From an uncultured archaeon (GTDB lineage: Archaea > Aenigmatarchaeota > Aenigmatarchaeia > GW2011-AR5 > JAHLMP01), in NCBI GenBank assembly GCA_964492465.1, contig CAZBKL010000002.1, forward strand, positions 1 to 35,446: a stretch of DNA of 35,446 nucleotides, in the 5' to 3' direction. Numbering within the stretch: position 1 is the stretch's first letter; every line of letters starts with the position of its first letter. Shown in pieces: positions 249-29,410 of the stretch. The translations under genes and the position numbers were made by a program. Below the pieces are notes generated by a model. That model was not told where the DNA came from and ran no database searches. It saw only the letters and a program-made list of their open reading frames with translations.

Positions 249-264
249 GAAATAATTTCTATTT

Positions 265-11855: not shown

Positions 11856-14800
11856 TTATTTTTTCCCTGTTCCATGGCTGCTGCTCAGCATGATTATATT
11901 TTTATTTACCTGTCCCAGTCTTTCCCTGTGCTTTTTCAACACCAGTACATACTCGCTTTTTGGCATCTCCCTGAGCAGAAAATACCTCTTCTGAATGTTC
12001 TTTACCTGATATTCTATATTTGCTTTCTCCTCCCTTAGCTTTGCGATTTTTTTGTTTCTTCTCTCGATTTCAGTCAGCTTATATACCATGAGAAGCGAGA
12101 TCGCTGCTACGCCCAAGATTGCTGCAATGCCCTCCCAATTCTGCCTTAATGCCAATATAATATTGTCTTTTTCTGATGCCTCTACTGTCTTCTTAATAAG
12201 CAACGCATTTTCTGCCTCGTCCAATGCATTTATGGATTTTTGGAAATAATCTTCCGCATCTTCGTATATTTCCGAAATGAAAGCTTCCAGACCTCTCTTG
12301 AAAAGCTCATCTGCAGGTGTGGTATTTACGCCTCTTTTTTCAGAATCCTGCATCTTTCCCTCAACCACATCTATGAGCTGGTTTGCAGACACAGCAGCAT
12401 CCTTTATGGTTTTCACATAAAGGGCAAGGGAAACTGCATTCAGGTACCTTCCCTGATACATCATAAGTTTCGCATCAGTGAGAGTGTCATTCATCCTTTT
12501 TATCCCGAAGCCGGATGCCTGTGCTTCCTTTATCAGAGATTCGGCCACGATGATTGCGTCTTTTGCGTGCTGCTCATCTGCGGCAGATGTTTGATTCATT
12601 GCCAGATTAGAAGCTGCATAAGCAGGCGCTGTTAGGGAAATGAGGAAAAAAACCAGCATAAGCGAAAGCCATATCTTCCTGCTGCCATTCTGCGGCTTCT
12701 TTTCTGTTTCTGCGAGCTCTTTCCTGAGCTCGTTCATGGTATTCCTGTAAATCTTTTTGCTGATTGCCCTGCGCTCATAATAGTTTCTCTGCGCCTCCTC
12801 TATCATGCTGATTATGCTGGCTCTCTTTCTCTCGTTGCTGAAAACGGAAAATCCAAAAAATCCCTTTCTCACAGGCTCAAGAGAAGCCTGCTCCTTCTTT
12901 ATCATTGCAAGCCTTTTCTCATACATTTTCCCCTCGTCTTCGAATTCAGACTTTCCTATTGTTCTGGACTGGAAAAACCTGCTTTGCAGCGATTTCAGAA
13001 GCGATGTTATTATCATTTCCTCGTTTTTCAGGGATATCAACTTTTTGATTCTCTTTCTGACCGCGACATGCCTATAGATTAATATTATAGACGCAACTGC
13101 GACAGCAAAAATAACAGCAGCAATTTTCCAGTTTTTTTCTATTGCTTCTGCTACAACAATCTGGTTGCCGACTTCTAAGCCGTACGCAAGAAAAGCTCCC
13201 GAAGCCCGTTCTTCAGCTCTTTTATAGTCGCCCCGCGCAAATGCCGAGAGCGCAAGTTCATGCAGCTTCTCGGTTTCGTTGGTTGATATTTTATAGATGG
13301 CTGCCTTATCCAGCTTTTGAGAAACTTCTTTTATCAGGGAGTCGGCAGCAAATGCCTGCTCCTGTATTTCAATTATTTTTTCAGCCAGTTCCTTTGCCGT
13401 GTCATAATCAAAATCTGCCATGCTCGCCCTTGTCTGGTTCGCAAGGTTCTCCACATTTTTCACATCCATGCCCAGGGTTTTCATCTTTTCTATCCCATAT
13501 TTGGCAGCTGAGACGAGGCTTGTTGTCTGGTTCTCATCAACGCTGTGAACAAAGACTGTTATTGTTGAGATGGCTCTTACTGTTGTCTCGTTTTCCTCAT
13601 AATTCAGGCGCTTTGCTTTGCCTGCTGCCTGGAGCGATAAATTATACGGCCCGTATTTCATGTATTGCGGGATTGCGAGCTCTATATGGAAACTTTTATC
13701 ATATCCAAAAGAAATGTTTTTCAAAATGATTGGAGTTATTTTTATCTGGCTGGGCGGGTAGCCGGATATGAGGAGCTCTACGCTGTTCATAATTGTTTTG
13801 TTCTCTGTGTTGCGCACAAGAACATCAAAATAGATTGTTCTGTTCCTGTAGCCATCAACGCGGGGCTTGTTCGATAATGAAAAAGCATATTTTTGCTGGG
13901 GTGCCTGAAATCCAACGTACGCCGGCACAGAGCTGGGTGAGCTTCCGCTTTGGGGCGCGGAACATTCTGCATCGTTTGCATAATTGCAGCCGTTGCCGCA
14001 AGCGCCGTCACCGCTTACGCAATTGACAAGAATATCCTGGCATTTTGTATGGTTGCCGTTCTCGTCCCTGCTCACGTTTATGCACACCGAGGCGACGCCA
14101 CTTGCAGCTGAGCTGCCGACAATCATGGTGATGTTGCTTGTGTTTGATACAAGCGGGCTCATGTCACCGAAATCCTGACTGAGCCCTCCTGATGTGTTGA
14201 GCCAGCCAGGAGGAAAGCTCCAGTTGAGCATGACGTTGTGCGCAGTCTCGTTTCCGATATTTCTTATAGTAACAGACATGTTCACGCCTGCCTGGCTGTG
14301 GCTGACCTGGGAAGGCATGCTGTCTATTATTATGTCAATGAAAGGGCCGCCGGTGTATGTATTCATAATGATAGAAGTGACTGCTGAGAGGGGCGAAGCT
14401 GTCTTTGAAGGATTTGTTGGCTGGGCTGATATGTTGATTGCCATTATGCCTGAGCTGTCATAACTCGCGAACTGGGCTGTTATATTCACATCCCTGCTCA
14501 TCTTTGCCGGAACATCAAACGGGTTGGTTGTATTATATGAATACAACCTCGGCCAGTTGTTCAGCAGGGTTATCGCAAGAGTTCCGTCGCCGGTATTGTT
14601 TATTGAAAGCACCCCCACATAGCTTTCGTTGTTGAAGTATCCCTGGGCTGTGGTGTTGGAAATGTTTGCCGTCCATGTATAATCCCAGGTTGAATTGAAG
14701 CTTGCTGATTGGCTTGTGTTATAATGGCTTTGCGTGTCATTGGCAAATATCCGGTAGTAATATATCCTCTCGGGGTCTGTGGTGTTTATTGTTGTGAAAG

Positions 14801-16091
14801 ACGCATTCCATGTGTCGCTGCTGGTGTTTGACATTGTAAGATTAACCCAGTCCACGTCATACTTGTACTGGAATGTCACATTGCTTATGTTGGAAATGCT
14901 TGTTATGTTTGCTGTCACATTTAATGTGACGCCAGGGTCAATGTCATCTGGTGAATTCGGGGAAAATTGTATCCAGTTCACTCTTGGCGGAGACGATACA
15001 TCCTGAAACAGGCTGAAATTGTTCCCGCCCCATGACTGGGACTCATTATCCTGTGCGAGACAGTTCCATTTATAAATCCCATCAGGAACGTTTGCCAGCG
15101 AGAAATTTGCAGAAACATTCCTATGGTCTGCGCTGCCCTCTGCCCAGGCAGAGCTTATTTCTGCCTCGCTCCTGTGCCTATTTGACATTCTCAGCTCATC
15201 GAAGACTGAATTTGAATGGTACTCCCCGTTTGCATCGCTTCCCAGGAACAGGTATTGCCCAAAGTATTCTGTTGCTAATTCACCGGGAAAATAATTTGAG
15301 CTTGATGATATGTTCGACCCGTCTATGAAAACATTTGTCCCGAGTTCATTGTCCTGCTGGCTGGAGTACCACATGGCTGATATAAAATGCCATTCTCCCA
15401 TGTTCCAGCTTGATATACCTGATAATGATATGGTTTCGTATACGCTGTCGTCACTAAGCCTGAGCATAAACCTGAAATAAAGGATATTGCTGCTGGAATA
15501 CATATCTATGTTCGAAGCTACTGTTCCGGTGTCAAAAAGCCAGTAAACGTTGGCAGATGCCGGGTCAAACCCCACCTTGATCCAGAACTCACTGGAACCG
15601 TTGGCTGAGAGGATGCCTGAAGTATTGTATTTCAATGTGCCCGGACTGCTTACTGCTACACCCTGCAAAGACTTTCCCTGCTCAAAGGATGTGGAATCAT
15701 TTATGCCTGTTCCGCCGTCGCATGCATAGGTGTTGTCAAAATGGCATAGCAGCGTTGTGCTTGAATCTTTCTCAATGCCTGTAAGCCTTTTTGTCCAGTT
15801 CAGGGAGAAATTTCCGCTTATATCATTATAAAACGAGACTGCGGAAATGTTGTTCTCCGAGGATGCATTGCAGTAAAATGCCACAACGCTCTGGTTTGAC
15901 AGGCTCGCATTTTGCGGGCTGGTCAGGTTTACAGCGGGCGCAGCCATTGCAACTGGTAAAAATAAAATAAGGAACAGCAAAAGGTATTTCACTTTCGCTT
16001 CAATGCACAGACTCTTTAAGCCTGTGATTAATATGCTCAGTTGAAGCGAAAGGGATACACCACCCTTCGGGGTGGTGAGATTCACTGGCAT
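11856..16091 (-). CDS. Giant (1411 aa) sequon-rich surface protein: signal peptide, LamG domain, CARDB-like beta domains, Cys-knot motif, then two copies of a helical stalk + TM + cytoplasmic module
   Basis: Likely signal peptide (V)KYLLLFLILFLPVAMA-AP at aa 34-50; a GTG at 15992 is an alternative start. LamG signature NSVFDELRMSNRHRSEAEI near aa 295-312. CARDB-like MSVTIRNIGNETAHNVMLNWSFPPGW. CVSGDGACGNGCNYANDAEC. TM segments at aa ~988-1006, ~1139-1158 and ~1319-1337. Confidence 0.85.
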   Translation of the reverse strand: MPVNLTTPKGGVSLSLQLSILITGLKSLCIEAKVKYLLLFLILFLPVAMAAPAVNLTSPQNASLSNQSVVAFYCNASSENNISAVSFYNDISGNFSLNWTKRLTGIEKDSSTTLLCHFDNTYACDGGTGINDSTSFEQGKSLQGVAVSSPGTLKYNTSGILSANGSSEFWIKVGFDPASANVYWLFDTGTVASNIDMYSSSNILYFRFMLRLSDDSVYETISLSGISSWNMGEWHFISAMWYSSQQDNELGTNVFIDGSNISSSSNYFPGELATEYFGQYLFLGSDANGEYHSNSVFDELRMSNRHRSEAEISSAWAEGSADHRNVSANFSLANVPDGIYKWNCLAQDNESQSWGGNNFSLFQDVSSPPRVNWIQFSPNSPDDIDPGVTLNVTANITSISNISNVTFQYKYDVDWVNLTMSNTSSDTWNASFTTINTTDPERIYYYRIFANDTQSHYNTSQSASFNSTWDYTWTANISNTTAQGYFNNESYVGVLSINNTGDGTLAITLLNNWPRLYSYNTTNPFDVPAKMSRDVNITAQFASYDSSGIMAINISAQPTNPSKTASPLSAVTSIIMNTYTGGPFIDIIIDSMPSQVSHSQAGVNMSVTIRNIGNETAHNVMLNWSFPPGWLNTSGGLSQDFGDMSPLVSNTSNITMIVGSSAASGVASVCINVSRDENGNHTKCQDILVNCVSGDGACGNGCNYANDAECSAPQSGSSPSSVPAYVGFQAPQQKYAFSLSNKPRVDGYRNRTIYFDVLVRNTENKTIMNSVELLISGYPPSQIKITPIILKNISFGYDKSFHIELAIPQYMKYGPYNLSLQAAGKAKRLNYEENETTVRAISTITVFVHSVDENQTTSLVSAAKYGIEKMKTLGMDVKNVENLANQTRASMADFDYDTAKELAEKIIEIQEQAFAADSLIKEVSQKLDKAAIYKISTNETEKLHELALSAFARGDYKRAEERASGAFLAYGLEVGNQIVVAEAIEKNWKIAAVIFAVAVASIILIYRHVAVRKRIKKLISLKNEEMIITSLLKSLQSRFFQSRTIGKSEFEDEGKMYEKRLAMIKKEQASLEPVRKGFFGFSVFSNERKRASIISMIEEAQRNYYERRAISKKIYRNTMNELRKELAETEKKPQNGSRKIWLSLMLVFFLISLTAPAYAASNLAMNQTSAADEQHAKDAIIVAESLIKEAQASGFGIKRMNDTLTDAKLMMYQGRYLNAVSLALYVKTIKDAAVSANQLIDVVEGKMQDSEKRGVNTTPADELFKRGLEAFISEIYEDAEDYFQKSINALDEAENALLIKKTVEASEKDNIILALRQNWEGIAAILGVAAISLLMVYKLTEIERRNKKIAKLREEKANIEYQVKNIQKRYFLLREMPKSEYVLVLKKHRERLGQVNKNIIMLSSSHGTGKK
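16058..16077. other. Perfect 8-bp GC-rich hairpin CACCACCC-TTCG-GGGTGGTG (cUUCGg loop on the + strand)
   Basis: Read directly. It lies inside the first 12 codons of the maximal giant ORF and upstream of the alternative GTG start at 15992. Confidence 0.5.
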
Positions 16092-16126
16092 ATTATAGAG
16101 TTTGATTTTCCTGAATTATAAAATGA

Positions 16127-16172
16127 TGTATAAACATATTGTATAAACATTTAGCTTATTTTGTATAAACAT
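16127..16172 (-). promoter_or_regulatory. Three direct copies of an 11-mer (TGTATAAACAT on +, ATGTTTATACA on -) upstream of the giant surface-protein gene
   Basis: Exact copies at 16127-16137, 16140-16150 and 16162-16172. The sense-strand core TTTATA is TATA-box-like. Confidence 0.5.
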
Positions 16173-16174
16173 CG

Positions 16175-16200
16175 TTTCATGATTGTTTTTTATCATGAAA
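16175..16200 (-). terminator. Hairpin TTTCATGAT-(8 nt)-ATCATGAAA just after the KaiC-like gene stop
   Basis: The 9-bp inverted repeat was read directly. It lies 6 nt downstream of the stop at 16206-16208 on the minus strand. Confidence 0.4.
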
Positions 16201-16205
16201 GCGCT

Positions 16206-17114
16206 TTATTCGGTTTTGCCGAATACCTCCTGCTCAGGGAAGACCTCCATACCTTTCTTGGAAGTTATTCTCATGGCAACCACTTTCTTAATGTGCTTTG
16301 CGCCGCGCATCTTCAGTACCTCAATTGCGCTCTCACGAATGTTGCCTGTCCTTTTATTGTAGAGAACTATAACGCCGTCAGCCAAGAATTCCTCAACGCC
16401 TGTCGGGCTAAATACGTCCGGAAACTGTGAAGTTTCAGTGATCAGGAACGATGTTACGCCCAAGCTTTCAAAATACCTGAAAAGGTGCTCTATGTAACTC
16501 CTGTAGCTTTCCCTACCCGAGAATGCTGATGCCACAGCAGTCAGTGAGTCAACAATGATTATATCAGGTGTGAAATTTTTAGGCAACAATATTGGGTTTA
16601 CGTCAATAAGAAGCTCGCCCTGAGACTTTGCCATCATCGCCTCAAGGGTCCTGCCTATGTCGAAAATGCTGAATCTCTTTATAACCAGCCTGCTGCTCAT
16701 ATTGTCTGTTTTCCACCCAAAATCTCTCATATGCTCCCTGAGCCGCTCCTCAGATTCCTCAAAGGTCATGTAAAGGCAGTTCTTACCCTTTTTTACGGCA
16801 TTGAGTATCATTTGCAGGCACATTATGGTCTTACCAGAGCCTGCGCCGCCAGAAATAAGTACAGAAGCTCCTTTTGGAATACCCTTTTCAAAAAGCTTGT
16901 CAAACCCTTCTATGCCCGTGAGAAGGTATTCACGCGGTTTTTCAGTGGCAGAAGCGCTGCTTTTTATTTTTTTCACGTTGTGCGACGATGCCAAAGCCTT
17001 TTCCTTGATATTGCTTTTTTCCCGCCTTTTGGTTCCCTGGCTCTTTTTTTGGGTTTTCTTTGGGTTATTGACAGGGTGCTTCTTCAGCGCCTTTGGCATA
17101 TATGTCATTATCAA
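16206..17114 (-). CDS. KaiC/RadA-like single-domain RecA-superfamily ATPase with a basic N-terminal extension
   Basis: 302 aa. TGIEGFDKLFEKGIPKGASVLISGGAGSGKTIMCLQ (Walker A) and IIIVDSLT (Walker B). The first ~55 aa are K/S-rich. The track start is a TTG; the first ATG is at 17108. Confidence 0.85.
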   Translation of the reverse strand: MIMTYMPKALKKHPVNNPKKTQKKSQGTKRREKSNIKEKALASSHNVKKIKSSASATEKPREYLLTGIEGFDKLFEKGIPKGASVLISGGAGSGKTIMCLQMILNAVKKGKNCLYMTFEESEERLREHMRDFGWKTDNMSSRLVIKRFSIFDIGRTLEAMMAKSQGELLIDVNPILLPKNFTPDIIIVDSLTAVASAFSGRESYRSYIEHLFRYFESLGVTSFLITETSQFPDVFSPTGVEEFLADGVIVLYNKRTGNIRESAIEVLKMRGAKHIKKVVAMRITSKKGMEVFPEQEVFGKTE

Positions 17115-17197
17115 TCTGGGCGTATATAAATCATGCTAAAATTGTGCAATTGTTTAAACATAATGCTTATCAACCCAAAAAGACAATAATTAATTGT

Positions 17198-17722
17198 ATG
17201 AATATGGAGCAGACAATAAAAGGAAATAAAATCCTGCTGTTTGTGGTATCAAACAAAAATTATATAAAAAACATAAATGAAATAGCTTATGGCGTTTCAA
17301 ATGTGAGCAGGAGCATAGTTTATGTTACCCTCAACAAGCCTTACAAAGTGCTTGTAGAATCCTTTGAAAAAAAGGGCATTAATGCGAAAAAAATGGCATT
17401 CATTGACTGTGCCAGCGGAAGCATCCAAAAGCCCAAGGACTATGATGTATTGTTTGTCTCTTCTCCGGAGGCCCTCACGGAATTGAGCATAACAATAAAC
17501 GAGACTATGAAAAAATCCACAAACATCATAATCTTTGATTCGGTATCCACACTCCTTGTGTACAAGGAGCCATCAATTGTCGTCAAATTCATCCACTCCA
17601 TGATATCCAAGATAAGGGCTGCTGACAAGAAATGCGTGATGATATCGCTGTCAGAGGATGCAAATAAAACAGTGCTGAAGGATATAGGGATGTTTATAGA
17701 CAAAATGGTTGTGCTGAAATAG
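17198..17722 (+). CDS. P-loop-less RecA/KaiC-fold protein (DUF835-like), paralog 1
   Basis: From ATG 17198, which avoids overlap with the divergent KaiC gene. It has a beta-alpha pattern like KaiC, but the Walker A position reads LLFVVSNKNYIK. Walker-B-like IIIFDSVSTLLVY. Motifs shared with 18293..18847: LNKPY, FxD, SPxxLxEL, FDxxSTLLxY, KFxHxMxS. Confidence 0.6.
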   Translation: MNMEQTIKGNKILLFVVSNKNYIKNINEIAYGVSNVSRSIVYVTLNKPYKVLVESFEKKGINAKKMAFIDCASGSIQKPKDYDVLFVSSPEALTELSITINETMKKSTNIIIFDSVSTLLVYKEPSIVVKFIHSMISKIRAADKKCVMISLSEDANKTVLKDIGMFIDKMVVLK

Positions 17723-17772
17723 CATTGGGGTATTAAAAAACCTTTATTAACCAGACTGATTATTATTAAATA

Positions 17773-18123
17773 ATGAGCTGTCCGTTATTTGTCGATTTTA
17801 CAAGAGAGTGTATAAAAGAAGTGGAATTCACTCCCACAGACACAACGGAATTCTGTGCAACAGAAAAATATGTTGACTGCCCTTTTTATAGACTATTGAT
17901 AAAAAAAGGGGATGTATGCAAAAATATCGGCAAATGCCCGGCATTCAAGAACTTTCAGGTTGGGGACTTCAACAAGTTTGTGGAAATCTCAAACAGGTTT
18001 TGCACATCTAAAAACCATGTGAGTTGTAAGAGATATATCACCAAAGAGAGCGGGCAGCCTGTGCCAATCAGCCTTCACCCGGACGGGAGCTTTGTTAAGG
18101 AGTGGGAAAACAAGCAGAGCTGA
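17773..18123 (+). CDS. Cys-rich small protein (8 Cys, 116 aa), function unknown
   Basis: MSCPLFVDFTRECIKE...FCATEKYVDCPFY...DVCKNIGKCPAF...RFCTSKNHVSCKRY. Spacings are C-x9-C, C-x7-C, C-x5-C and C-x7-C, which suggests metal or Fe-S binding. Confidence 0.5.
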   Translation: MSCPLFVDFTRECIKEVEFTPTDTTEFCATEKYVDCPFYRLLIKKGDVCKNIGKCPAFKNFQVGDFNKFVEISNRFCTSKNHVSCKRYITKESGQPVPISLHPDGSFVKEWENKQS

Positions 18124-18196
18124 CAATAGAACATACCCTGAAATAGACAGCAAAATGTAGATTTTTCAATGCTAAGCGGAATTCTGTTCTGAAAGC

Positions 18197-18218
18197 ACAT
18201 GTTTATACAAAAACATGT
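18197..18218 (+). promoter_or_regulatory. Inverted repeat ACATGTT-(8 nt)-AACATGT containing the 11-mer ATGTTTATACA, upstream of 18293..18847
   Basis: Read directly. The 11-mer at 18199-18209 is identical to the sense-strand repeat upstream of the giant gene. A TATA-like TTTTTTATATAGG follows near 18235-18247. Confidence 0.45.
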
Positions 18219-18292
18219 TAAATATAACTGTATTTGTTTTTTATATAGGGCACGTTTAATTAAAGTATGGATTTAAACAAAGGCGAGGGGGA

Positions 18293-18847
18293 ATGATTTC
18301 TGATATTCTGCACGAAATAACAACAAACAAGTTTCTGATAATTCTGATGAATGAGAACGAGTACACGAACAAGCTGAAGGAAATAGTTGAATCTGTGGAC
18401 AAGGACAACACCAGAATATGCTATGTATGCCTGAACAAGCCATACAGCTATGTTGTGGAAGACCTGAAATCAAGGGGTGTTGACACAAAAAACTTCTTTT
18501 TCCTGGACATACTGACTTCGCACTATGGAAAGCCGGAGCCTGCTGATAACTGTGTTTTTCTTGAATCCCCGTTAAATCTGGACGAACTCAAGAAGGCTGT
18601 GGATGGCATAGTCAGGGACAGTGGCTGTGAGGTAATACTTTTTGACACATTTTCCACGCTTCTCATATACCACAGGTCTTTCTCATTGATGAAATTCGCC
18701 CATAACATGAAAAGTGAAAAGCTGCAGGAGGAAACAAGGAAGCTCTTTATAGTGCTCAAGGAAGATATGCTTTCTGCAAACGAGGGGGGCTTTGCGAAGG
18801 ACCTTGAGATGTTTGCTGACAAGAATATAGAAATTTCATGCAAATAG
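18293..18847 (+). CDS. P-loop-less RecA/KaiC-fold protein (DUF835-like), paralog 2
   Basis: 184 aa. The Walker A position reads FLIILMNENEYT. VILFDTFSTLLIY is Walker-B-like. It aligns along its full length with 17198..17722. Confidence 0.6.
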   Translation: MISDILHEITTNKFLIILMNENEYTNKLKEIVESVDKDNTRICYVCLNKPYSYVVEDLKSRGVDTKNFFFLDILTSHYGKPEPADNCVFLESPLNLDELKKAVDGIVRDSGCEVILFDTFSTLLIYHRSFSLMKFAHNMKSEKLQEETRKLFIVLKEDMLSANEGGFAKDLEMFADKNIEISCK

Positions 18848-18921
18848 GGCCTTATGGCGCATGATGTGGAAAACGCGTGAATTCTGAAAGATTTAAATAA
18901 ATTGCTTTGAAGTATAAACTA

Positions 18922-19236
18922 ATGGCAGAGTTGTTAAATATAGACTTTAAAATGAAAAAAATTCTGGTCACGCTTGAGCTGTCGGCAGACGAGCACCAGA
19001 ATATAAAGCATCATAGGGAAATGCTGGTTGCGCCGACCAGCTCTTTTACAGATGTGCTGACTACCGGCACTCTCGGAAACAGCAACAGGATAATGCTTCC
19101 GAACAAGATACTTAAAAAAAACGATATTGCCAGGCTCAGGAAAAAGGTTCCCTGCTCTGTTTTAAAAATTAAAAAAGGGAGGTATCTTGTGATTGAGCTG
19201 GAAGGACCAAGCGCTGAGATACCTGAATTTAGATAA
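18922..19236 (+). CDS. AbrB/SpoVT-like small DNA-binding protein (tentative)
   Basis: NSNRIMLPNKILKKNDIARLRKKVPCSVLKIKKGRYLVIELEG resembles the swapped-hairpin AbrB motif (xxIPkeiRkklgi). The start is uncertain: TTG 18907, ATG 18922 or ATG 18952. Confidence 0.4.
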   Translation: MAELLNIDFKMKKILVTLELSADEHQNIKHHREMLVAPTSSFTDVLTTGTLGNSNRIMLPNKILKKNDIARLRKKVPCSVLKIKKGRYLVIELEGPSAEIPEFR

Positions 19237-19267
19237 ATAACCGGTTTTTTCATATTGATGTGGTGCT

Positions 19268-19945
19268 ATGAGGATAACAACAGGTCTTGAGAGATTGGAT
19301 GAGCTGATAGAAGGGGGCTTCCCTGAAAAGACTGCCATTCTGCTATCGGGCGGGCCAGGCGCAGGCAAAACCCTCATGGGCCTTAATTTTCTGATAGAGG
19401 GCGCGAAAAATGGTGAGAAATGCTGCTACCTTTCCCTGACAGAAAGCGAGGAAGAGCTGAAACGCGCTATTGACAGCATAGAATCCCTCAGGGCAGCAAA
19501 CGATTTTCTGGACAAGAATCTCATTCTCAAATGCATGGAGATCGGCGACGAGCTTTGCAATAATGTTGACTATTTCATAAAAACCATATCCACTTACCCG
19601 AAGCTCGACAGGATAGTGGTTGACAACATAAACAAGCTGCTTATATTTGCAGATACCAGAAAAAGCTACCGCATTAACGTGGTAAAATTAATAAAGCACC
19701 TTAAGGAGAAAGCAAACTGCTCCCTGGTTTTATGCGAGACTGAGGGGGATGTAGTGGACACCAAGAACGGGGAAGCATTTGAGTGCGACGGGGTAATTCA
19801 TCTGTCTTTCCTGGAGCTGGAGGAGAAACCTATGCGCACAATAAGAATCCAGAAGCTAAGGTACACAGACTTTGAGCCGCATGTTTCCAGGGAAATAATA
19901 ATCAACAAGAAATGCATCCGTATGGGACCGACCAAAGTAATATGA
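19268..19945 (+). CDS. KaiC/RadA-like single-domain RecA-superfamily ATPase
   Basis: 225 aa. TTGLERLDELIEGGFPEKTAILLSGGPGAGKTLMGLNF (Walker A), RIVVDNINKL (Walker B), and a KaiC-like C-terminus IRIQKLRYTDFE. Confidence 0.85.
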   Translation: MRITTGLERLDELIEGGFPEKTAILLSGGPGAGKTLMGLNFLIEGAKNGEKCCYLSLTESEEELKRAIDSIESLRAANDFLDKNLILKCMEIGDELCNNVDYFIKTISTYPKLDRIVVDNINKLLIFADTRKSYRINVVKLIKHLKEKANCSLVLCETEGDVVDTKNGEAFECDGVIHLSFLELEEKPMRTIRIQKLRYTDFEPHVSREIIINKKCIRMGPTKVI

Positions 19946-20005
19946 CGTGCGGCCGCCGGCAACAAATAAATTTCATTTATATTCTGCCCTTTTCTCTTAA
20001 TAGTT

Positions 20006-21019
20006 ATGAGAATGTCTGAGTCGCTGCGGAGAGGCACAATAGATGCAGTTACGGGGGTAATACTAAATCGGTTTAAAATAAAGAGCAGAAGAAATATGCT
20101 GTTTTTTGAGGACATACTTGCAAATTATGTAAAGACATGCGAACAAAACGGAAAGGGCGTTGAGATCAAGAAAATCAATCAAAAATGGGCCATATTATGC
20201 ATATCCCAGCTTATCCCACCTGTTCTCATAAGAATTCTTCCTGTTTCTATTTTGGCCCAAAGAATAAAGGGCGTATGGATTAATCTTGGTCTCGTTGAGG
20301 ATTTCAAAGTCGAAAAAAACGAAGATATAATAACCATCGTGACGAAAAATGAGTTCGTAACCAGGATTGTAAAAAACAATGTCTACATGTCGGGGGCATA
20401 TGAAGGTATCATAAATGAGGTTTTTGGGCTCGGTGCAATATGCATAGAAATTTCCCAAGACAAGAATATTAGTAAATACGTCTTCAAATTATCGGGTTCT
20501 CCTCCTGTTGTCAGGGGAAAGTATAAAAAAACTTACGATGCGCTGAACTCTTTTAAGTTTTTCGGGGGTTTTGGGCTCAAAGATGCGCTAAAATCCGGAA
20601 TTTTTCAATTAAGGAGTGATAATAGAATTTATTTCAGGGGAAAGTCCATAATTCCGATTGAAAATACGGTTTTTCATATATTCAGCAACCAAGGAATATT
20701 TTTAGAGGAGGTGCCAAAAATATCATTCGATTATTTCAGTAAATTGATAGAAATGGGCTCTTCAAACGAGCAAAAATTATCATTGCTTAAAAAACTGCTT
20801 CAGGCAATGGGCTGGGGTTCTATTAAGATGTCATTAAACGGACATAAAAATATTGCTATGGAGATTGCAAACCCACCATATGGATTGCAGACGGAACCCG
20901 ATAATTGGAGATTTTTGTCAATGGTTATTTTGGGATATTTCTGGTTATTAGATAATAGATTTGGAATTGATAATATTTATGAGAAACGCAATACCTTATT
21001 TATTTCATATGGCTGCTGA
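20006..21019 (+). CDS. Hypothetical protein with two V4R-like (4-vinyl-reductase / small-molecule-binding) halves (tentative)
   Basis: 337 aa. ITIVTKNEFVTRIVKNNVYMSGAYEGIINEVFGLGAICIEISQDKNISKYVFKL and LLQAMGWGSIKMSLNGHKNIAMEIANPPYG...LSMVILGYFWLL both resemble the V4R pattern, but they lack its usual Cys residues. Confidence 0.5.
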   Translation: MRMSESLRRGTIDAVTGVILNRFKIKSRRNMLFFEDILANYVKTCEQNGKGVEIKKINQKWAILCISQLIPPVLIRILPVSILAQRIKGVWINLGLVEDFKVEKNEDIITIVTKNEFVTRIVKNNVYMSGAYEGIINEVFGLGAICIEISQDKNISKYVFKLSGSPPVVRGKYKKTYDALNSFKFFGGFGLKDALKSGIFQLRSDNRIYFRGKSIIPIENTVFHIFSNQGIFLEEVPKISFDYFSKLIEMGSSNEQKLSLLKKLLQAMGWGSIKMSLNGHKNIAMEIANPPYGLQTEPDNWRFLSMVILGYFWLLDNRFGIDNIYEKRNTLFISYGC

Positions 21020-22042
21020 ACAAATATAATCAATTTCATTTCCTTCAGTTCTTCTCGCAAAGCAACCGGAAAGACATGTTTTAAATTTGCAGTATTTACA
21101 CTGGTCTGAAAATGTCAATTTTTCCTTATGCTCATTCAGCCTCTTTGAGTGGGTATTAATAAGTTTTCCATCTATCTGCAGGATATTATACATGGGTGTT
21201 CTGTCCATAGCACAGAAATAGACATCACCTTTGACTGATATCGTTGTGTAAAGACCAGCCAGCGCCACGCAATAACCCCCAGTTACGCTGAGGGCGGTCT
21301 GGAAATCGAGCGGATAGAGCGGGTCGCCAGATTCCACATTTACAGCTCCTGTCTCCTCTGCAAATCTTGTCAGCTTTTTGAGGGTCTCGATATAATCAGT
21401 CGGCAAAATGCTCATTTGCTCCTTTGCCCGCCCGGCGGGGGTCATGTCCCAAACACGGCACCGCTCCACTCCCAGCGAGCGGGCGAAATTGAATATTTCA
21501 AAAATTTCGCCCTCGTTTTCCTTTGTGAGAACAGTTTGTGATGTGCAAACGATGCCGGCGTCCTGTGCATTCTTCATGGCTTGCACAGACTTTTCAAAGG
21601 AGCCTTCGCGCCCTCTTATCTGGTCGTGCTTCCCCGGCTCTATGCTGTCTATGTTAATCTGGACCTGCGAAAGGCCGATTTCCTTCATCTCCTGCGCAAG
21701 CTCTCTTGTAAGCAGCCAACCGTTTGTATTCATGTGCACTATAAAACCGCGGTCGCTCGCCTCTTTTACAGCTTCCCTTATGTACGGATGCACAAGCGGC
21801 TCCCCGCCTGAAAAAGTCACCTGCATGACCCCTCCGCTTTTCAGTGTGTCAAGAATTTTTTTAACATTGTCCAGGCTCATGTGCTCGCCATTCTGGGTTG
21901 AGCTTGCATAGCACCATTTGCAGTTCAGGTTGCATGCTTCTGTAATCTCGAGCACGACCCATGACAGCGACCTGTTCCTGTCAAAATTCCTGAATTTCTC
22001 CCCCGCGTCCGTATGCTTCCAGCCGAATGTCACCACGCACAT
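21005..22042 (-). CDS. Radical SAM enzyme with a C-terminal SPASM/twitch-type auxiliary cluster domain
   Basis: 345 aa. LEITEACNLNCKWCY (CxxxCxxC), FSGGEPL, NTNG, and a C-terminal CKYCKFKTCLSGC. Confidence 0.85.
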   Translation of the reverse strand: MCVVTFGWKHTDAGEKFRNFDRNRSLSWVVLEITEACNLNCKWCYASSTQNGEHMSLDNVKKILDTLKSGGVMQVTFSGGEPLVHPYIREAVKEASDRGFIVHMNTNGWLLTRELAQEMKEIGLSQVQINIDSIEPGKHDQIRGREGSFEKSVQAMKNAQDAGIVCTSQTVLTKENEGEIFEIFNFARSLGVERCRVWDMTPAGRAKEQMSILPTDYIETLKKLTRFAEETGAVNVESGDPLYPLDFQTALSVTGGYCVALAGLYTTISVKGDVYFCAMDRTPMYNILQIDGKLINTHSKRLNEHKEKLTFSDQCKYCKFKTCLSGCFARRTEGNEIDYICSAAI

Positions 22043-22069
22043 CCCAAATAACCCGCAAATACGCTTATC

Positions 22070-22849
22070 TTACAGCAAAAACAGCCACAAATCAAGAAAA
22101 GCAAAAGACATCATGCCAAAACTATGCGCAAAGCCAAAATTGTTTCTGATAAGCTCAATAAGCACTATAAAATTGCATACGAGGATTATGCATAACCTGC
22201 TGAAGTCAAATGCTGCGAGCATACCTGTCAGAAAAATCAGGGCATAAATCATTTTTTTAATTTTGGCTGGCCCGAAAATCACCGGCAGGGTATTTATGCC
22301 CGCATCTTTGTCGCCCTCATAATCCCTCAAATCCGACAAAATGCTTCCTGCGAGGATGAACAAATAAAACTCAGTATAATAAAACAAAGTCCCTGCATCA
22401 ATATAGCCGTATCCCACAAGAAACAGCTGCGATATCAAAAAAGCTGTGTACAAATTTTTTATCAAAGGATGTTTTTTAATTCTGAAATGAGAGTAGGCGA
22501 TACCAGTGACAATAAACGTGAGTATGAAAAAAGCTGAATAGAAAGTGAGCGAAAACGAAAGCATGATGCTGGTAAGTGCGCAGCATGAGACAACTGCCAA
22601 ACCGAGTTTTTTATTCAAAACAAGCCTGTTCAGACTACCCCTGTTTTTCAGGTCCTCCTCTTTGTCCGTTATATTGTTGTATGAGTAAACAGCTGCGCAT
22701 GCAAAAAAGGAGCATGCCAGCACGAAAGCCGCAGAAATGCCGTGCGCTGACAGCAGTATTCCCGCAAGAGCCAGGAGAGAGGCTGAGATGCATATCCTAA
22801 CCCTGATAAAATTCAGGAATTCCATGACCATTTCTGCAACCAGGACCAT
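22070..22849 (-). CDS. UbiA-superfamily prenyltransferase, paralog 2
   Basis: 259 aa, about 8 TM helices. First Asp-rich motif NNITDKEEDL, second motif DLRDYEGDKDAGINTLP. Confidence 0.75.
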   Translation of the reverse strand: MVLVAEMVMEFLNFIRVRICISASLLALAGILLSAHGISAAFVLACSFFACAAVYSYNNITDKEEDLKNRGSLNRLVLNKKLGLAVVSCCALTSIMLSFSLTFYSAFFILTFIVTGIAYSHFRIKKHPLIKNLYTAFLISQLFLVGYGYIDAGTLFYYTEFYLFILAGSILSDLRDYEGDKDAGINTLPVIFGPAKIKKMIYALIFLTGMLAAFDFSRLCIILVCNFIVLIELIRNNFGFAHSFGMMSFAFLDLWLFLL

Positions 22850-23656
22850 TCATAAACCACTCATAACATAAATATATGGCGTGAGAAATTCCACAAGCAC
22901 AATCCTTCCGCGAACTTTCCTGGTTATTGTCCTGTTATGAATTTTTTTCAGGTTCAGTATTTTTGCAGAAAGGTTGATTACCCACGGGACTGCCATTGCA
23001 GGCGAATATATCAACCCGCCAAATGAAACCAGCGAAACCGCAGCTGCTGTTATGCAAATCATCCATGCCATTTTCAATTTGTTCGCAAGAAAGAGGTTTG
23101 TATCATCCTTTTTGTCAGTAGAATCCTTTTGGCATCCGATGTACAGGTATTGAGACATGCAAAAAACCGTTAGAGAAATTATGGGCAGGCTCATACTCTC
23201 CATAAAAAAATAATTCAGCGAAATAATTGTTACAAGCCAGGTGGTGGTCGCGAGCAGATAACACTTGATATGATACTTCTTAAGCCGTACCCTTTTGTTG
23301 GAGTAGGCAAAAAGCAAAACGGCATAATAAATTCCTGCGGCTAGCAGAACATTGCTGAATGAAGAAAGAATTAACAGGCCGAATAACAGGGATAAAAATG
23401 AGAGATTCCTCATTCCTTTTGGGGTCATAAATTTATTTACAGACAGCTTGTCATGCCTGGCATTCCTTACATCTTCATGATAATCACAGAAGTCATTGTA
23501 GATGTCGCCGAACAGGTGGACCAGAAAAAAGCCAGTGGCAATTAGGAGCAGGCTGGCACTTATATTTGAAGTCAGTGCGCCGTACATCAATATAAATCCA
23601 AACGTGAGTCCCATCCCTGGACGGACCCTTTTATATATTAAATATGGAAGTTTCAA
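22850..23656 (-). CDS. UbiA-superfamily prenyltransferase, paralog 1 (divergent)
   Basis: 268 aa, polytopic. YNDFCDYHEDVRN (NDxxDxxxD) and a second acidic patch QKDSTDKKDD. The track start is a TTG overlapping the upstream stop; ATG 23614 is an alternative. Confidence 0.7.
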   Translation of the reverse strand: MKLPYLIYKRVRPGMGLTFGFILMYGALTSNISASLLLIATGFFLVHLFGDIYNDFCDYHEDVRNARHDKLSVNKFMTPKGMRNLSFLSLLFGLLILSSFSNVLLAAGIYYAVLLFAYSNKRVRLKKYHIKCYLLATTTWLVTIISLNYFFMESMSLPIISLTVFCMSQYLYIGCQKDSTDKKDDTNLFLANKLKMAWMICITAAAVSLVSFGGLIYSPAMAVPWVINLSAKILNLKKIHNRTITRKVRGRIVLVEFLTPYIYVMSGL

Positions 23657-24783
23657 ATCACCATCCCCTGCTTATGCATACTGCTGCATAATCGCAACAC
23701 CTCTTCCTCGGAGAAAGCTCTCTTCTGCTGCTCTGACTCGCTCTTTATATGCTTCAGGAAGCCATCCAAGCTGTTCTCTGATAAGTGCACGTCAGTCTTT
23801 TCCAGTACATGCTTCAGGGCATTTTTTCCACTGTGCTTGCCGAACCTGAACTTTCGCCTGCATCCTATAAGTTCTGGTTCAAATGGCTCGAAGGTCAAAG
23901 GATGCTTTAATACAGCATCTGAATGTATGCCAGACTCATGAGAGAATATATTGCTTCCGATAATGGGCTTGTGTGGGTGTATCCTTACGCCAGAATATTT
24001 CTCAACGAGGTCGCATATTTCCTTTATTAATCCGTATCTGACATTCATTTCCATGTTTTCGAGGCATTTTAGAGCGACGCAAACTTCCTCTATTGGCGCA
24101 TTGCCTGCGCGTTCCCCTATTCCTGTAAAAGTTCCAGAAAACGCATCAGCCCCGGCTTTAATGCCTGAAATGGTATTGGCAGTTGCCATGGAAAAATCAT
24201 TATGAACGTGCATGCCGATTCTGCATCTGGTCTCTTTCTTGATGCTGGAAACAAATCCCGCAACTTCCGAAGGCCTAAGGTGCCCTACTGTGTCAGCGAT
24301 GTAAAAAATATCTATGGAATCTTCAATGCTCTTCATGAACTTCAGGAGATATGTATAATCTGCTCTTGTTGAGTCCATGCCGGCAAAGCTTATTTTCAGT
24401 CCAAGCCTGTTGGCGTATTTCACTGACTCTATTGCCCTTCTGAGGTTTGTTCTCCTGTCGTTTCCGAATTTTGGGCCGAGAAAAATGTCAGAGACTGGTG
24501 CAAAAAGGGTTATTTTTTTAATACCAAGGCTCTTAACCTGATTGATATCATCCTTTCTCATACGGCAGGTTGCAGAAATCTTGTCATGATATCTTTCTGC
24601 CAGCTCTTTTGCCAAGCGTGCCTCTGAATCAGAAACAGCAGGCATTATGTCAATCTCATCAACGCCAAATTCAACGAATTTTTCAGCCAACTCAATCTTT
24701 TCCTCGCTCGTGAACACTATGTCAGGCATCTGTTCACCGTCGCGCAAAGTCGTGTCGTGTATGTATATTTTTGTCAGGGGCAT
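23653..24783 (-). CDS. Homocitrate/2-isopropylmalate/citramalate synthase family enzyme (HMGL-like DRE-TIM, no LeuA regulatory domain)
   Basis: 376 aa. IHDTTLRDGEQMP, HVHNDFSMATANTISGIKAGA and GIGERAGNAPIEEV are present. Confidence 0.85.
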   Translation of the reverse strand: MPLTKIYIHDTTLRDGEQMPDIVFTSEEKIELAEKFVEFGVDEIDIMPAVSDSEARLAKELAERYHDKISATCRMRKDDINQVKSLGIKKITLFAPVSDIFLGPKFGNDRRTNLRRAIESVKYANRLGLKISFAGMDSTRADYTYLLKFMKSIEDSIDIFYIADTVGHLRPSEVAGFVSSIKKETRCRIGMHVHNDFSMATANTISGIKAGADAFSGTFTGIGERAGNAPIEEVCVALKCLENMEMNVRYGLIKEICDLVEKYSGVRIHPHKPIIGSNIFSHESGIHSDAVLKHPLTFEPFEPELIGCRRKFRFGKHSGKNALKHVLEKTDVHLSENSLDGFLKHIKSESEQQKRAFSEEEVLRLCSSMHKQGMVI

Positions 24784-24993
24784 GAAATCCGCTTTTGTTT
24801 AAATGTATATATATTTAATAATAATCTTATACATATAATGTATTTATATATATAATAAAATAACAAATATAATAAATTTTTATTACTAGTTATGAATTAA
24901 TAGTTATGCTATAACATTGAACTGATGGGTGTGATTAGAAGGGTACCCTAAAAGATAACAACCTTTTTAAGTAACCGGAATAAGAAAATAATA

Positions 24994-25362
24994 ATGAAAA
25001 AGAAGCTTATTATGATTGTTGACGACGAAGAGAACATCCGTGAGTTTCTTACTGTCATTCTGGAAAAGGAAAATTTTGATGTGGTAACTGCTTCTGACGG
25101 GCAAGACTGCCTTAATAAGCTTAAGACCATAAAGCCAGACCTGATACTTCTTGATATGATGATGCCCGTGATGTCTGGGAGGGAGGTTGCTGAGAAAATA
25201 AGGAAGAGCCCTGATACAAAAAACCTCAAGATAGCATTTGTCACAGTTGCGCGATTTTCTGAGCTTGGAAAAGACACGCTTTCCAAACTGAATGTTTTGG
25301 ATTACATAACAAAGCCTTTTGACAACGAGAAACTTATAGAAAGGGTGAAGAAGCTGGCTTAG
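24994..25362 (+). CDS. Stand-alone CheY-like response regulator receiver
   Basis: 122 aa. IMIVDDEENI, LILLDMMMPVMSG (phospho-Asp context), and KIAFVTV with a downstream K. Confidence 0.9.
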   Translation: MKKKLIMIVDDEENIREFLTVILEKENFDVVTASDGQDCLNKLKTIKPDLILLDMMMPVMSGREVAEKIRKSPDTKNLKIAFVTVARFSELGKDTLSKLNVLDYITKPFDNEKLIERVKKLA

Positions 25363-25444
25363 AAGGCGGTTTCTGCAAAAGGCAATGATACTCTTCCCGC
25401 GCCATTAGAAACAAGGACAATTATGACCAAAGGTGTTTCTGCAT

Positions 25445-27703: not shown

Positions 27704-27707
27704 CTAA

Positions 27708-28208
27708 TCACTTATTTTTGCTTTCCATCTCTTCGGCCCTCTTTTTCATCTCAGCCATCTTCAGTTCCCTGCCGACTGCAAGCTTCCTGAACTTCTCAAG
27801 TTCCACGACCTTTGATTCCAGTTCCTTCTTGAGCTTTTCCAAGTCATTTGTCCGCTCTCTTACGGCTGACTCTATTTCGTCACTTCTTTTTTTCAAATCC
27901 TCGGTAGCTTTTTTGCTCTCATGTATCTTCCTGATGCTTGAAAGCGACAGCGAAACGACCAGAAATACATATATGGCCCCAAAGCAGTATATCGCACTTA
28001 TCATAAGCTTGTCATCAAGCTGTATGTTTGAGATTTCAACAAATATTTGAAATATATAACCTACAAAAAAGAAGAGCGTGAGCAGGGACAAAATTATCCA
28101 GTATTTTTTCGTGCTCCCCTCCTCAGTGATTTTTATAATGCCCATGTACTTGAAGAAGGATAAAATAAAAACTGCCGCCCCAATTCCGATTAAAATTACA
28201 TTTATCAT
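27708..28208 (-). CDS. Small membrane protein (about 4 TM) ending in a signalling-type coiled coil with no output domain
   Basis: 166 aa. The C-terminus is ...VRERTNDLEKLKKELESKVVELEKFRKLAVGRELKMAEMKKRAEEMESKNK. Its start overlaps the upstream gene by 4 nt, and its stop is 4 nt from the HK start. Confidence 0.6.
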   Translation of the reverse strand: MINVILIGIGAAVFILSFFKYMGIIKITEEGSTKKYWIILSLLTLFFFVGYIFQIFVEISNIQLDDKLMISAIYCFGAIYVFLVVSLSLSSIRKIHESKKATEDLKKRSDEIESAVRERTNDLEKLKKELESKVVELEKFRKLAVGRELKMAEMKKRAEEMESKNK

Positions 28209-29107: not shown

Positions 29108-29128
29108 CTTTTTTCAAAGGCAGAAATC

Positions 29129-29410
29129 ATGATTGTGAAGAACCGCTGGTCAATAGACCTTGGCTCTTACACGCCGCAAACCACCAGTCTGCACATTAGG
29201 AATGACATTGTCATTCCTATGCATGAGAATATAAAGTATTCCCAATGGGCTGGTGGCATTGCTACGTATAAAAATTATATTTCCTGGCTTATATACAGCG
29301 CTGCATTTATATTTAAGCTGCATATGTTTAAACCTCGGCAGGAGCAAAATTTTTCAAAAATCCCGAAATTAAAAAATATTATTAGCCTGAAAAACAAGAG
29401 CTTAGCATGA
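29129..29410 (+). CDS. Possible small ORF translationally coupled (ATGA overlap) to the archaeosortase-like gene; very uncertain
   Basis: 93 codons from ATG 29129. Its stop TGA at 29408-29410 overlaps the ATG at 29407. The region also carries an antisense ORF (29150..29347), so it may simply be a 300-nt divergent promoter region. Confidence 0.2.
   Translation: MIVKNRWSIDLGSYTPQTTSLHIRNDIVIPMHENIKYSQWAGGIATYKNYISWLIYSAAFIFKLHMFKPRQEQNFSKIPKLKNIISLKNKSLA

Follow-up and report, generated by a model that had tools for sequence, protein, structure and literature searches.

Archaeal KaiC-like ATPases were reportedly proposed to be signal transduction hubs by Makarova, Galperin and Koonin in 2017 (mBio 8:e01959-17), when the lineages that carry the cluster described here had barely been sampled; to our knowledge the proposal rests almost wholly on gene neighbourhoods, with few cases in which inputs, outputs and targets are defined. 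Here we analyse seven genes at positions 16206-21019 of a stretch of archaeal DNA of 35,446 nt, the whole of which we call the window. They encode two single-domain KaiC-like ATPases (KaiC1 and KaiC2), two KaiC paralogs without a P-loop (iKa and iKb), an AbrB-like protein, a Cys-rich protein (Cys8) and a 337-residue protein with a predicted tandem Bet3/V4R/H-NOX-like fold (p337). All seven predicted open reading frames (ORFs) are present at the positions and on the strands assigned to them; public gene calls disagree on the start codons of the ORFs at 16206-17114 and 17198-17722, which may be off by a few codons. Comparison of gene order indicates that they form the regulatory portion, centred on KaiC, of a conserved archaeal cluster of ∼17 kb and ∼16 genes, spanning 11856-29335 of the window.

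The cluster resembles the proposed hubs in that single-domain KaiC-like ATPases occur with inactivated homologs, sensor domains and small outputs, and in that signalling is predicted from gene neighbourhoods. It differs in its particular parts: KaiC2 is encoded with an AbrB-like protein and with a member of a new family of tandem Bet3/V4R-like fold, these genes converge on those of UbiA, radical-SAM and HMGL enzymes, and the cluster has in addition a giant glycoprotein and a palindrome of its own. KaiC-like ATPases, their inactivated paralogs and their two-component links are already known in archaea, and this cluster is a variation on the hub theme. The searchable literature, the figures of the 2017 KaiC-hub paper lying outside the comparison, contains no description of the cluster, of the p337, AbrB-like or Cys8 families or of the palindrome.

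Several known systems share parts of its logic. The phenol sensors XylR, DmpR, MopR and PoxR carry a V4R sensor, an AAA+ ATPase and a helix-turn-helix (HTH) domain on one polypeptide, and thereby combine a V4R-type domain for a hydrophobic ligand, an oligomeric P-loop ATPase and a DNA-binding domain. In our locus, however, the corresponding elements are three genes, the ATPase is of the RecA/KaiC rather than the AAA+/sigma54 type, the candidate DNA binder is AbrB-like rather than HTH, and p337 is without the Cys/Zn motif of V4R. Single-domain KaiC-like ATPases are found acting on a transcription factor in haloarchaeal gas vesicles (GvpD on GvpE) and in a surface machine, the archaellum (ArlH/FlaH), but no gvp or arl genes are present here, and the scores against the NCBIfam ArlH/FlaH models, 61-71 bits, are far from the cut-offs of 194-215 bits. 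With the cyanobacterial KaiABC clock the locus has in common a KaiC-family P-loop ATPase with the EE catalytic motif (KaiC1); its ATPases are single-domain proteins of 225-302 residues, whereas the clock protein has ∼520, and neither KaiA nor KaiB is encoded. The NCBIfam equivalog for circadian KaiC (NF006799/TIGR02655) describes a double-domain protein of ∼500 residues with a cut-off of 408 bits, against which KaiC1 and KaiC2, of one domain each, score 135.6 and 82.4 bits. Finally, the Elp4/5/6 ring of Elongator is a structural precedent for mixed RecA-type rings, assembled as it is from P-loop-less RecA/KaiC-like subunits; Elongator is a eukaryotic tRNA-modification factor, though, and no evolutionary or functional link to it is shown here.

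On the input side there is a parallel with archaeal response regulators. Fusions of a receiver domain (REC) with the inactivated KaiC domain DUF835 (iKaiC), as well as V4R/H-NOX-like output domains attached to REC, are documented in archaea (PMC5847659). The REC-DUF835, REC-MEDS and iKaiC-REC regulators couple a receiver to an inactivated KaiC as appears to be the case here, and V4R/H-NOX-like domains, MetOD1 among them, are likewise partners of archaeal two-component systems (PMC5847659). In contrast, REC, iKaiC and the V4R-like protein are encoded by separate genes in the present cluster, and iKb falls below the DUF835 cut-off.

Extent and conservation of the cluster

With the p337 family as bait (an alignment of eight sequences), 21 loci (L001-L021) were fetched from contigs representing one genome per species, from Altiarchaeota, Candidatus Hydrothermarchaeum, Aenigmatarchaeota, Bathyarchaeota and unclassified archaea. 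Three further distinct loci from closer relatives (L022, L030 and L031) bring the number of related loci to 24. Gene models in these loci are six-frame ORFs with starts picked by alignment, and conservation was counted by comparing every window protein with the ORFs of L001-L021 using phmmer. Because many loci end at contig ends, all counts per 21 loci are minimum figures.

Besides p337 itself, which as the bait is present in all 21 loci, homologs were found of KaiC2 in 18, of the AbrB-like protein and the prenyltransferase UbiA1 in 17 each, of the radical-SAM enzyme (rSAM) in 12, of the stand-alone receiver REC in 11 and of the histidine kinase (HK) in nine. The HMGL enzyme, the second prenyltransferase UbiA2, the PAS protein, iKa and iKb are each found in eight loci, the small membrane protein mem166 in six and the giant glycoprotein, BIG, in five; KaiC1 has ∼9 true orthologs. 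UbiA2 and HMGL are additionally present in L022, L030 and L031. Outside 11856-29107, nothing in the window proved to be conserved in L001-L021. Six of the seven genes are thus repeatedly found close together, in as many as 17-18 of the 21 independently sampled loci and across phyla, and the linkage first proposed for them is borne out. Their description as a self-contained module is not: the conserved unit extends to a two-component system, to the UbiA, rSAM and HMGL enzymes and to BIG.

The invariant core, as judged from gene order, consists of three genes, those of the AbrB-like protein, KaiC2 and p337, which converge with one or two UbiA genes accompanied by rSAM and/or HMGL. AbrB-like gene and kaiC2 occur together in the cluster in all 17 assessable loci, the former directly 5′ of the latter, and in 16 of the 17 the pair shares its strand with p337 and lies 5′ of it. 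The two are spaced by about −4 to +22 nt in the 17 loci, a sign that their coupling in the orthologs is tight or translational. On its other side p337 converges on a UbiA gene, either directly or via rSAM. The enzymes come in two flavours, one comprising rSAM and UbiA1, the other UbiA1, UbiA2 and HMGL together with an aminotransferase encoded between kaiC2 and p337 (seven loci); three loci of the second flavour also have a geranylgeranyl-reductase (GGR)-like flavoprotein, and L022 has a B12-radical-SAM enzyme instead. The window combines rSAM, both UbiAs and HMGL.

In its closest relatives (L030 and L031) the order is kaiC1, then iKa-AbrB-kaiC2-p337 facing (rSAM), UbiA, UbiA and HMGL, then iKb-REC facing HK. 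Given this order, the arrangement in the window, where the inserted Cys8 gene and iKb separate iKa from the AbrB-like gene, is a local rearrangement, and the succession iKaiC-Cys-iKaiC-AbrB described in the original prediction is specific to the window; in the closest relatives iKb stands beside the response regulator.

The KaiC-centred proteins

KaiC1 (16206..17114, minus strand; 302 residues, Walker A GGAGSGKT) and KaiC2 (19268..19945, plus strand; 225 residues, Walker A GGPGAGKT) match the Pfam KaiC family, PF06745, at 1.1e-51 (175.9 bits) and 2.5e-35 (122.4 bits), against a cut-off of 26.6 bits. In alignments KaiC1 keeps GGAGSGKT, FEES and the Walker B sequence IIVDS across eight orthologs, and KaiC2 keeps GGPGxGKT, L(T/N)E with a single Glu, and VVDN across 17. 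Walker A, the Walker B Asp and the catalytic Glu are intact in the orthologs of both, as expected of the two active ATPases that had been predicted. KaiC1 and each of its orthologs have an N-terminal tail of ∼60 residues, Lys-rich and of low complexity, that KaiC2 does not have and that may make contact with nucleic acid or membrane.

The two P-loop-less proteins, iKa (17198..17722) and iKb (18293..18847), are both encoded on the plus strand. In Pfam, iKa scores just above the cut-offs for KaiC (1.7e-6; 28.0 bits against 26.6) and DUF7504 (PF24336; 4e-6; 27.8 bits against 27) and below that for DUF835 (PF05763; 7e-5; 23.0 bits against 33.1), while iKb is below the cut-off both for DUF835 (1e-4; 22.6 bits against 33.1) and for KaiC (13.1 bits). 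They are paralogs of one another (hhalign probability 99.95%, E = 2.6e-38), and neither carries GKT. Aligned with KaiC1 (hhalign E = 1.3e-5), iKa has VSNKNYIK at the position of the P-loop and NKP at that of the catalytic EE, and it keeps a Walker-B-like FDS. A direct hhalign comparison of iKb with KaiC gave nothing, and its place in the family follows from its link through iKa and from Pfam.

A joint profile of 19 family members finds KaiC 8zn5 (1.4e-4), FlaH/ArlH 4yds (2.7e-4) and PH0284 2dr3 (1.8e-3) in the PDB, and in Pfam the members match KaiC (15 of the 19, best 5.1e-9), DUF835 (15), DUF7504 (12) and, weakly, Elong_Iki1 (five). These matches sustain the RecA/KaiC fold that was first predicted. 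Since KaiC homology is combined with loss of the P-loop, iKa and iKb are, by sequence, inactivated KaiC proteins, ‘iKaiC’ in the sense of Galperin et al. 2018 (PMC5847659). Orthologs of iKb adjoin the REC gene almost without exception.

Neither p337, the 104-residue AbrB-like protein nor the Cys-rich protein matches any model in Pfam or NCBIfam. We take p337 (20006..21019, plus strand) to found an unannotated family; its 87 clusters are uniformly of ∼336 residues, no Pfam domain occurs among them, and where sources are named they are metagenome-assembled genomes (MAGs) of Aenigmarchaeota and Altiarchaeales. An AlphaFold2 (AF2) model built from a 28-sequence alignment (pLDDT 87.5, pTM 0.87) has as its top Foldseek match in the PDB the TRAPP subunit Bet3 (6aq3_B; E = 2.5e-4, TM-target 0.54), and further matches are to TPC6, BcsD/CesD, H-NOX, YslB and the aromatic-sensor domain of MopR (5kbh_B). 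Each aligns over ∼120-180 columns, about half of the protein, and the DSSP assignment runs twice through the pattern helices-hairpin-helix-hairpin; on the model, a Bet3/V4R/H-NOX-like fold is apparently present twice. V4R is the prokaryotic homolog of Bet3 (PMC2253512), and for this reason the ‘two V4R-like halves’ of the original prediction are backed at the level of fold.

At the level of sequence they are not. None of 28 family members reaches E ≤ 1 against Pfam V4R (PF02830), searches of the PDB by single sequence and by profile returned nothing significant, and the N- and C-terminal halves show no sequence similarity to each other. The Cys cluster of V4R is missing, C45 being the one invariant Cys; the other invariant polar residues are E219-N220-T221, H224 and W270. 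The N-terminal 30 residues are highly conserved yet unstructured in the AF2 model, and look like a partner-binding peptide.

A canonical V4R protein does occur in a variant of the same cluster, in an Altiarchaeota MAG (L013:3475-4071; Pfam V4R 5.4e-12; 199 residues as a stop-to-stop ORF), and has a C-terminal Cys cluster. Its gene lies between those of a UbiA prenyltransferase and an iKaiC protein (iKa), with two more KaiC-like genes upstream. By hhalign it shows no similarity to p337 (E = 0.62); its position ties V4R-type domains to this neighbourhood independently.

The AbrB-like protein (18922..19236, plus strand; 104 residues) is a candidate DNA binder. Its AF2 model (pLDDT 77) has an N-terminal β-hairpin and helix followed by a ββαββ half-barrel (strands 47-51 and 54-58, helix 61-66, strands 78-83 and 86-91), and the motif LTTGxLGNSNRIMLP is invariant among the orthologs. 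Four lines of evidence, each weak, agree. The topology of the model is one; Foldseek matches to it are dominated by MazE, VapB, C68, C56 and AbrB (TM 0.43-0.58 over ∼53 residues, E ≥ 0.58); four of 18 orthologs match Pfam MazE_antitoxin (PF04014) at E ≥ 0.013; and a motif match to MraZ appears in the PDB (E = 0.76). An alignment of AbrB, Abh, SpoVT and MazE sequences is matched by hhalign in the expected register, but at no better than E = 0.009 and a probability of 4.5%. The window protein itself has no match to the AbrB/MazE/SpoVT family PF04014 at the gathering score. An AbrB/MazE/MraZ-type half-barrel is therefore probable but not established, and the name AbrB-like that was first given to the protein rests on fold-level evidence.

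Cys8 (17773..18123, plus strand) was rightly described as an 8-Cys protein: it has exactly eight, and each is invariant throughout its family, which comprises 72 representative clusters at E ≤ 1e-3. The family ranges over Aenigmatarchaeota and Nanoarchaeia as well as Patescibacteria and Omnitrophota. This range suggests that a small protein that binds a metal or an Fe-S cluster, and for which Pfam has no model, has passed between the domains. Bacteria with small genomes and candidate phyla are among its carriers (P0240, P0248 and P0178). It is not, however, a constant member of the cluster. No homolog is found in any of the 24 related loci (in L001-L021 even at E ≤ 10, nor in L022, L030 or L031), and elsewhere its neighbours belong to a different module.

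In an Aenigmatarchaeota contig (L025, GCA_039000685.1) a Cys8 homolog (6001-6333) lies head-to-head with the gene for a 1957-residue surface protein (74-5947) and is followed by a run encoding a mem166-like seven-transmembrane (7TM) protein fused to PAS, a FIST protein, a HAMP-containing HK and REC; the surface protein is not homologous to BIG at E ≤ 1e-3. A second archaeal contig has the gene directly before a mem166 homolog, a HAMP protein, a dCache HK and REC, and in a third contig the neighbours are a DUF3108 protein and a nitroreductase. Because of these neighbours we regard Cys8 as travelling with the histidine-kinase branch and not with KaiC, probably as a lineage-specific accessory of that branch. 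A giant surface protein with Cys8 and a two-component system may be a recurrent theme.

A palindrome at the cluster promoters

Promoters of cluster operons in distant phyla carry a 12-bp palindrome, ATGTTTAWACAT, with a TATA-like TTTAAA. In the window, three tandem copies of TGTATAAACAT (ATGTTTATACAT/A; minus strand, 16126..16172; spacing 13 and 22 nt) lie between kaiC1 and BIG, 35-70 nt 5′ of the BIG start codon, and one more copy lies upstream of iKb. The form TTGTTTAAACAT (17150..17161) is found in the divergent promoter region between kaiC1 and iKa, at the same position as in L030 and L031, and ATGTTTATACAA (18199..18210, plus strand) is 83 nt 5′ of iKb. At the right-hand edge of the cluster ATGTTTAAACCT (29324..29335) precedes the PAS-mem166-HK genes by 217 nt. 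With up to one mismatch the 11-mer occurs seven times in the window, against 0.61 expected. The exact window 11-mer, ATGTTTATACA, is absent from the other loci; the conserved form, recovered once W is allowed at the centre, is the palindrome ATGTTTAAACAT, which L007 has in perfect form three times in intergenic regions of its cluster.

When the window and the 24 loci are taken together, ATGTTTAWACAT with at most one mismatch is found 31 times in 239 kb of cluster spans and not at all in 128 kb of flanks, and 27 of the 31 matches are intergenic. Shuffles that keep composition in blocks of 30-120 nt give 5.2-5.5 matches on average and 14 at most; exact copies number eight, against 0.16-0.19 expected from the same shuffles. 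The most recurrent site, in ∼10 loci, is the promoter region from which iKb-REC and the enzyme operon (HMGL or UbiA) diverge. Others are upstream of BIG (three copies in the window, and in L017 and L018) and upstream of PAS/HK (29324 in the window, and in L007). The palindrome is usually found 37-66 nt before a start codon. Archaeal repressor sites usually overlap the core promoter, and this element may do the same; a palindrome specific to the cluster does fit a DNA-binding output. In the window the spacer between HMGL and REC (24784-24993), ∼210 nt long and unusually AT-rich with runs of TATATA, contains a degenerate half-palindrome, TTGTTTAAATGT, ∼12 nt from the HMGL start, where other loci have the perfect palindrome.

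The AbrB-like genes have a conserved promoter element of their own, a BRE (transcription factor B recognition element)/TATA-like AAAGTTTAAATAT ∼25 nt 5′ of the ATG, represented in the window by AAAGATTTAAATAA ∼22 nt ahead of the ATG. For this reason the six-gene plus-strand run probably has internal promoters, and a single obligatory transcript is unlikely.

Partner genes, proposed circuit and alternatives

The remaining genes of the cluster encode a surface protein, a set of enzymes and a two-component system. BIG (11856..16091, minus strand) is a membrane glycoprotein of 1411 residues with a Laminin_G_3 domain (Pfam, 8.7e-9) and, by sequon count, ∼50 N-x-S/T sites. Hydropathy gives it a signal or membrane-spanning segment, ∼930 extracellular residues that include the LamG domain, and three more membrane-spanning segments split by coiled-coil stretches. 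Homologs are full-length in L002, L011, L012 and L018, and the N-terminal ∼440 residues are present at the contig end of L017. In L011 the genes for BIG, iKa and HK are contiguous on one strand, with overlaps of ∼2 nt between BIG and iKa and ∼5 nt between iKa and HK; L012 (BIG-iKa) and L018 (BIG-iKa-PAS) have the same co-orientation.

The enzyme genes are all on the minus strand. Convergent on p337 is rSAM (21005..22042), an NirJ/AhbD-like protein of the SPASM type (Pfam Radical_SAM 1.1e-33) whose best NCBIfam matches, NirJ2, GeoRSP and AhbD, are all far under cut-off. Next come UbiA1 (22070..22849; Pfam UbiA, PF01040, 1.8e-21, 77.0 bits) and UbiA2 (22850..23656; 8.6e-13, 48.6 bits), both above the cut-off of 34.2 bits and each with multiple membrane-spanning segments; the nearest NCBIfam models to UbiA1, archaeal prenyltransferase and digeranylgeranylglyceryl phosphate (DGGGP) synthase, score under cut-off. 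HMGL (23653..24783) resembles homocitrate, isopropylmalate and citramalate synthases (Pfam HMGL-like 1.6e-58, with HCS_D2), again under the NCBIfam equivalog cut-offs. Since every match falls below the equivalog cut-offs, no pathway is assigned to these enzymes, and tetrapyrrole modification, DGGGP-type lipid synthesis and quinone synthesis are all unsupported as specific candidates.

REC (24994..25362, plus strand) is a stand-alone CheY-like receiver (Pfam Response_reg 4.7e-27). HK (25445..27703, minus strand) is a sensor histidine kinase of dCache-HAMP-HisKA-HATPase architecture with two membrane-spanning segments, so that kinase and receiver domain together make up a two-component system in the cluster. 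It ends a minus-strand run that begins with a cytoplasmic PAS-PAS sensor (28205..29107; Pfam PAS_9 2.6e-24) and continues with mem166 (27708..28208), a small polytopic membrane protein whose homolog in L025 is fused to PAS, the fusion carrying HisKA_7TM. A minus-strand ORF of 112 codons antisense to REC (24948-25286) is almost certainly spurious, its apparent conservation in 10 loci being due to its overlap with REC.

What might such an assembly do? The best explanation of the cluster as a whole, in our view, is a KaiC/two-component circuit that controls the synthesis of a prenylated compound and a surface protein, although our confidence in it is evenly balanced by doubt. The kinase, with its PAS and 7TM partners, would sense external or redox cues and phosphorylate the stand-alone receiver, with Cys8 perhaps joining this branch of sensing in the window organism. 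The receiver would then act on the iKaiC subunits, a split-gene equivalent of the REC-DUF835 fusions (PMC5847659). Mixed RecA-type rings would be formed by iKaiC and KaiC proteins, their nucleotide or ATPase state serving as the switch. On a second input, p337 might bind a hydrophobic prenylated product or intermediate of the UbiA/rSAM/HMGL pathway and report it to KaiC2. KaiC2 in turn would control the AbrB-like protein, which would bind the palindrome and thereby put the signalling genes under shared control with BIG and the enzymes. As to the product, we speculate that it is a doubly prenylated polar compound, whether a non-canonical isoprenoid lipid, a lipid anchor or a signal, because the cluster has two UbiAs, an occasional GGR-like reductase, an enzyme that condenses 2-oxoacids and an aminotransferase.

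The most specific form of this proposal we put forward tentatively, as less likely than not to hold: p337, as a lipid or isoprenoid sensor, would gate a KaiC that acts on an AbrB-type repressor at the phylum-spanning operator ATGTTTAAACAT, with added input from the two-component system and iKaiC, and the circuit would thereby govern both the prenylated compound and the glycoprotein in DPANN-like and other uncultured archaea.

Several observations count against the circuit. The fold assignment of p337 has marginal Foldseek E values (best 2.5e-4) and finds no echo in sequence, either towards V4R or between the two halves, and that of the AbrB-like protein is statistically weak by each measure (Foldseek E ≥ 0.58, Pfam E ≥ 0.013, hhalign E 0.009). 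Nothing ties the palindrome to the AbrB-like protein specifically and, having a TATA-like core, it could reflect shared promoter architecture rather than an operator. None of the enzyme matches reaches an equivalog cut-off. Some loci (L004, for example) lack KaiC1, iKa, iKb and BIG within ±10 kb, so that the circuit is only partly universal, and all of the relatives are MAGs, often truncated.

If the circuit is real, it would be the first KaiC ‘hub’ with a defined input, output, cis-element and set of target genes. On paper the cluster supplies two inputs, one through HK, receiver and iKaiC and the other through a new ligand-binding family, together with a candidate DNA-binding output, a conserved operator and an identifiable regulon comprising the prenyltransferase, radical-SAM and HMGL enzymes and a giant glycoprotein. 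It flags three unannotated families (p337, AbrB-like and Cys8) and points to a prenylated metabolite or lipid, probably new, in Aenigmatarchaeota, Altiarchaeota and Hydrothermarchaeota, lineages in which little is understood of the envelope or of the interactions between cells.

An alternative is that the cluster is a biogenesis machine, in which KaiC and iKaiC are assembly or energising ATPases, like ArlH, for the export, glycosylation, lipid anchoring or assembly of BIG. The UbiA, rSAM and HMGL enzymes would make an anchor or envelope lipid, p337 would be a Bet3-like carrier of lipid or a scaffold and the AbrB-like protein a protein adaptor, a role that the weakness of the AbrB evidence leaves room for. 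The co-orientation of BIG with iKa in L011, L012 and L018, including the overlaps of BIG, iKa and HK in L011, would be natural in such a machine, as would the position of BIG after kaiC1 in the window, the match of the iKaiC profile to FlaH/ArlH (4yds), the covalent binding of palmitate by Bet3 (from the title of 6aq3) and the membrane-embedded nature of UbiA enzymes. We nevertheless consider this unlikely. BIG is found in just five of the 21 loci, compared with a universal AbrB-KaiC2-p337-UbiA core; the cluster has no genes for secretion, for pili or for glycosyltransferases; and a palindrome specific to its promoters suggests dedicated transcriptional control.

Could the core instead be a biosynthetic cluster accompanied by generic regulators, with no coupling between KaiC and p337? 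In that case the cluster would serve above all to make a prenylated metabolite or lipid, and p337 would be a carrier of substrate like BchJ, or an unrecognised enzyme, for which its invariant polar residues could form an active site; its convergence with UbiA is invariant, and it is around this pair that the enzyme set varies (SPASM or B12 rSAM, aminotransferase, GGR). The link between AbrB-like gene and kaiC2 is just as invariant as that with UbiA, however, in 17 of 17 assessable loci and mostly on the same strand just 5′ of p337, and the conserved, disordered N-terminal 30 residues of p337 resemble a partner-binding peptide. For these reasons such a cluster seems to us distinctly improbable.

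The reading originally proposed was a self-contained seven-gene hetero-oligomeric ATPase switch, with redox or metal input through the Cys-rich protein, ligand input through the V4R-like protein and output through the AbrB-like protein. All seven genes are indeed adjacent in the window, the fold assignments stand, and eight invariant Cys would suit a metal or Fe-S site. We now think it a poor prospect, given that the Cys-rich gene is in none of the 24 related loci and elsewhere adjoins 7TM/PAS-HK-REC genes or, in bacteria, a nitroreductase gene, that its place between two iKaiC genes is found in the window alone, and that the conserved unit is much bigger, with its two-component system, enzymes and BIG. 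That the genes are neighbours by chance, form a mobile island or serve in anti-phage defence is barely credible: the sharp borders of the cluster and its presence in several phyla would accord with horizontal transfer, and PADLOC gives weak P-loop and radical-SAM matches, but chance is excluded by synteny over 24 loci, the flanks are housekeeping genes with no integrase, transposase or tRNA, and the PADLOC matches are generic similarity alone (mad8, 6e-7 over 90 residues; rSAM to pVip).

These flanks encode ScpB, aEF-2 (2625-4793), a β-CASP RNase, RtcA and eIF5A on one side and a transporter, a radical-SAM protein, a DsbA-like protein and FEN1 on the other, and mobile-element genes and Rfam matches are likewise absent from the window. 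At 31381-33491 a second radical-SAM protein (380 residues) overlaps a DsbA/thioredoxin-like protein (340 residues), neither of them conserved in the related loci. An island of redox or arsenic type, unrelated to the flanks of the window, lies upstream of the cluster in L022 (2107-9360) and encodes an ArsR-like HTH protein, thioredoxin-like proteins, ferredoxins, a prismane/hybrid-cluster protein, an ArsP permease and DsbD.

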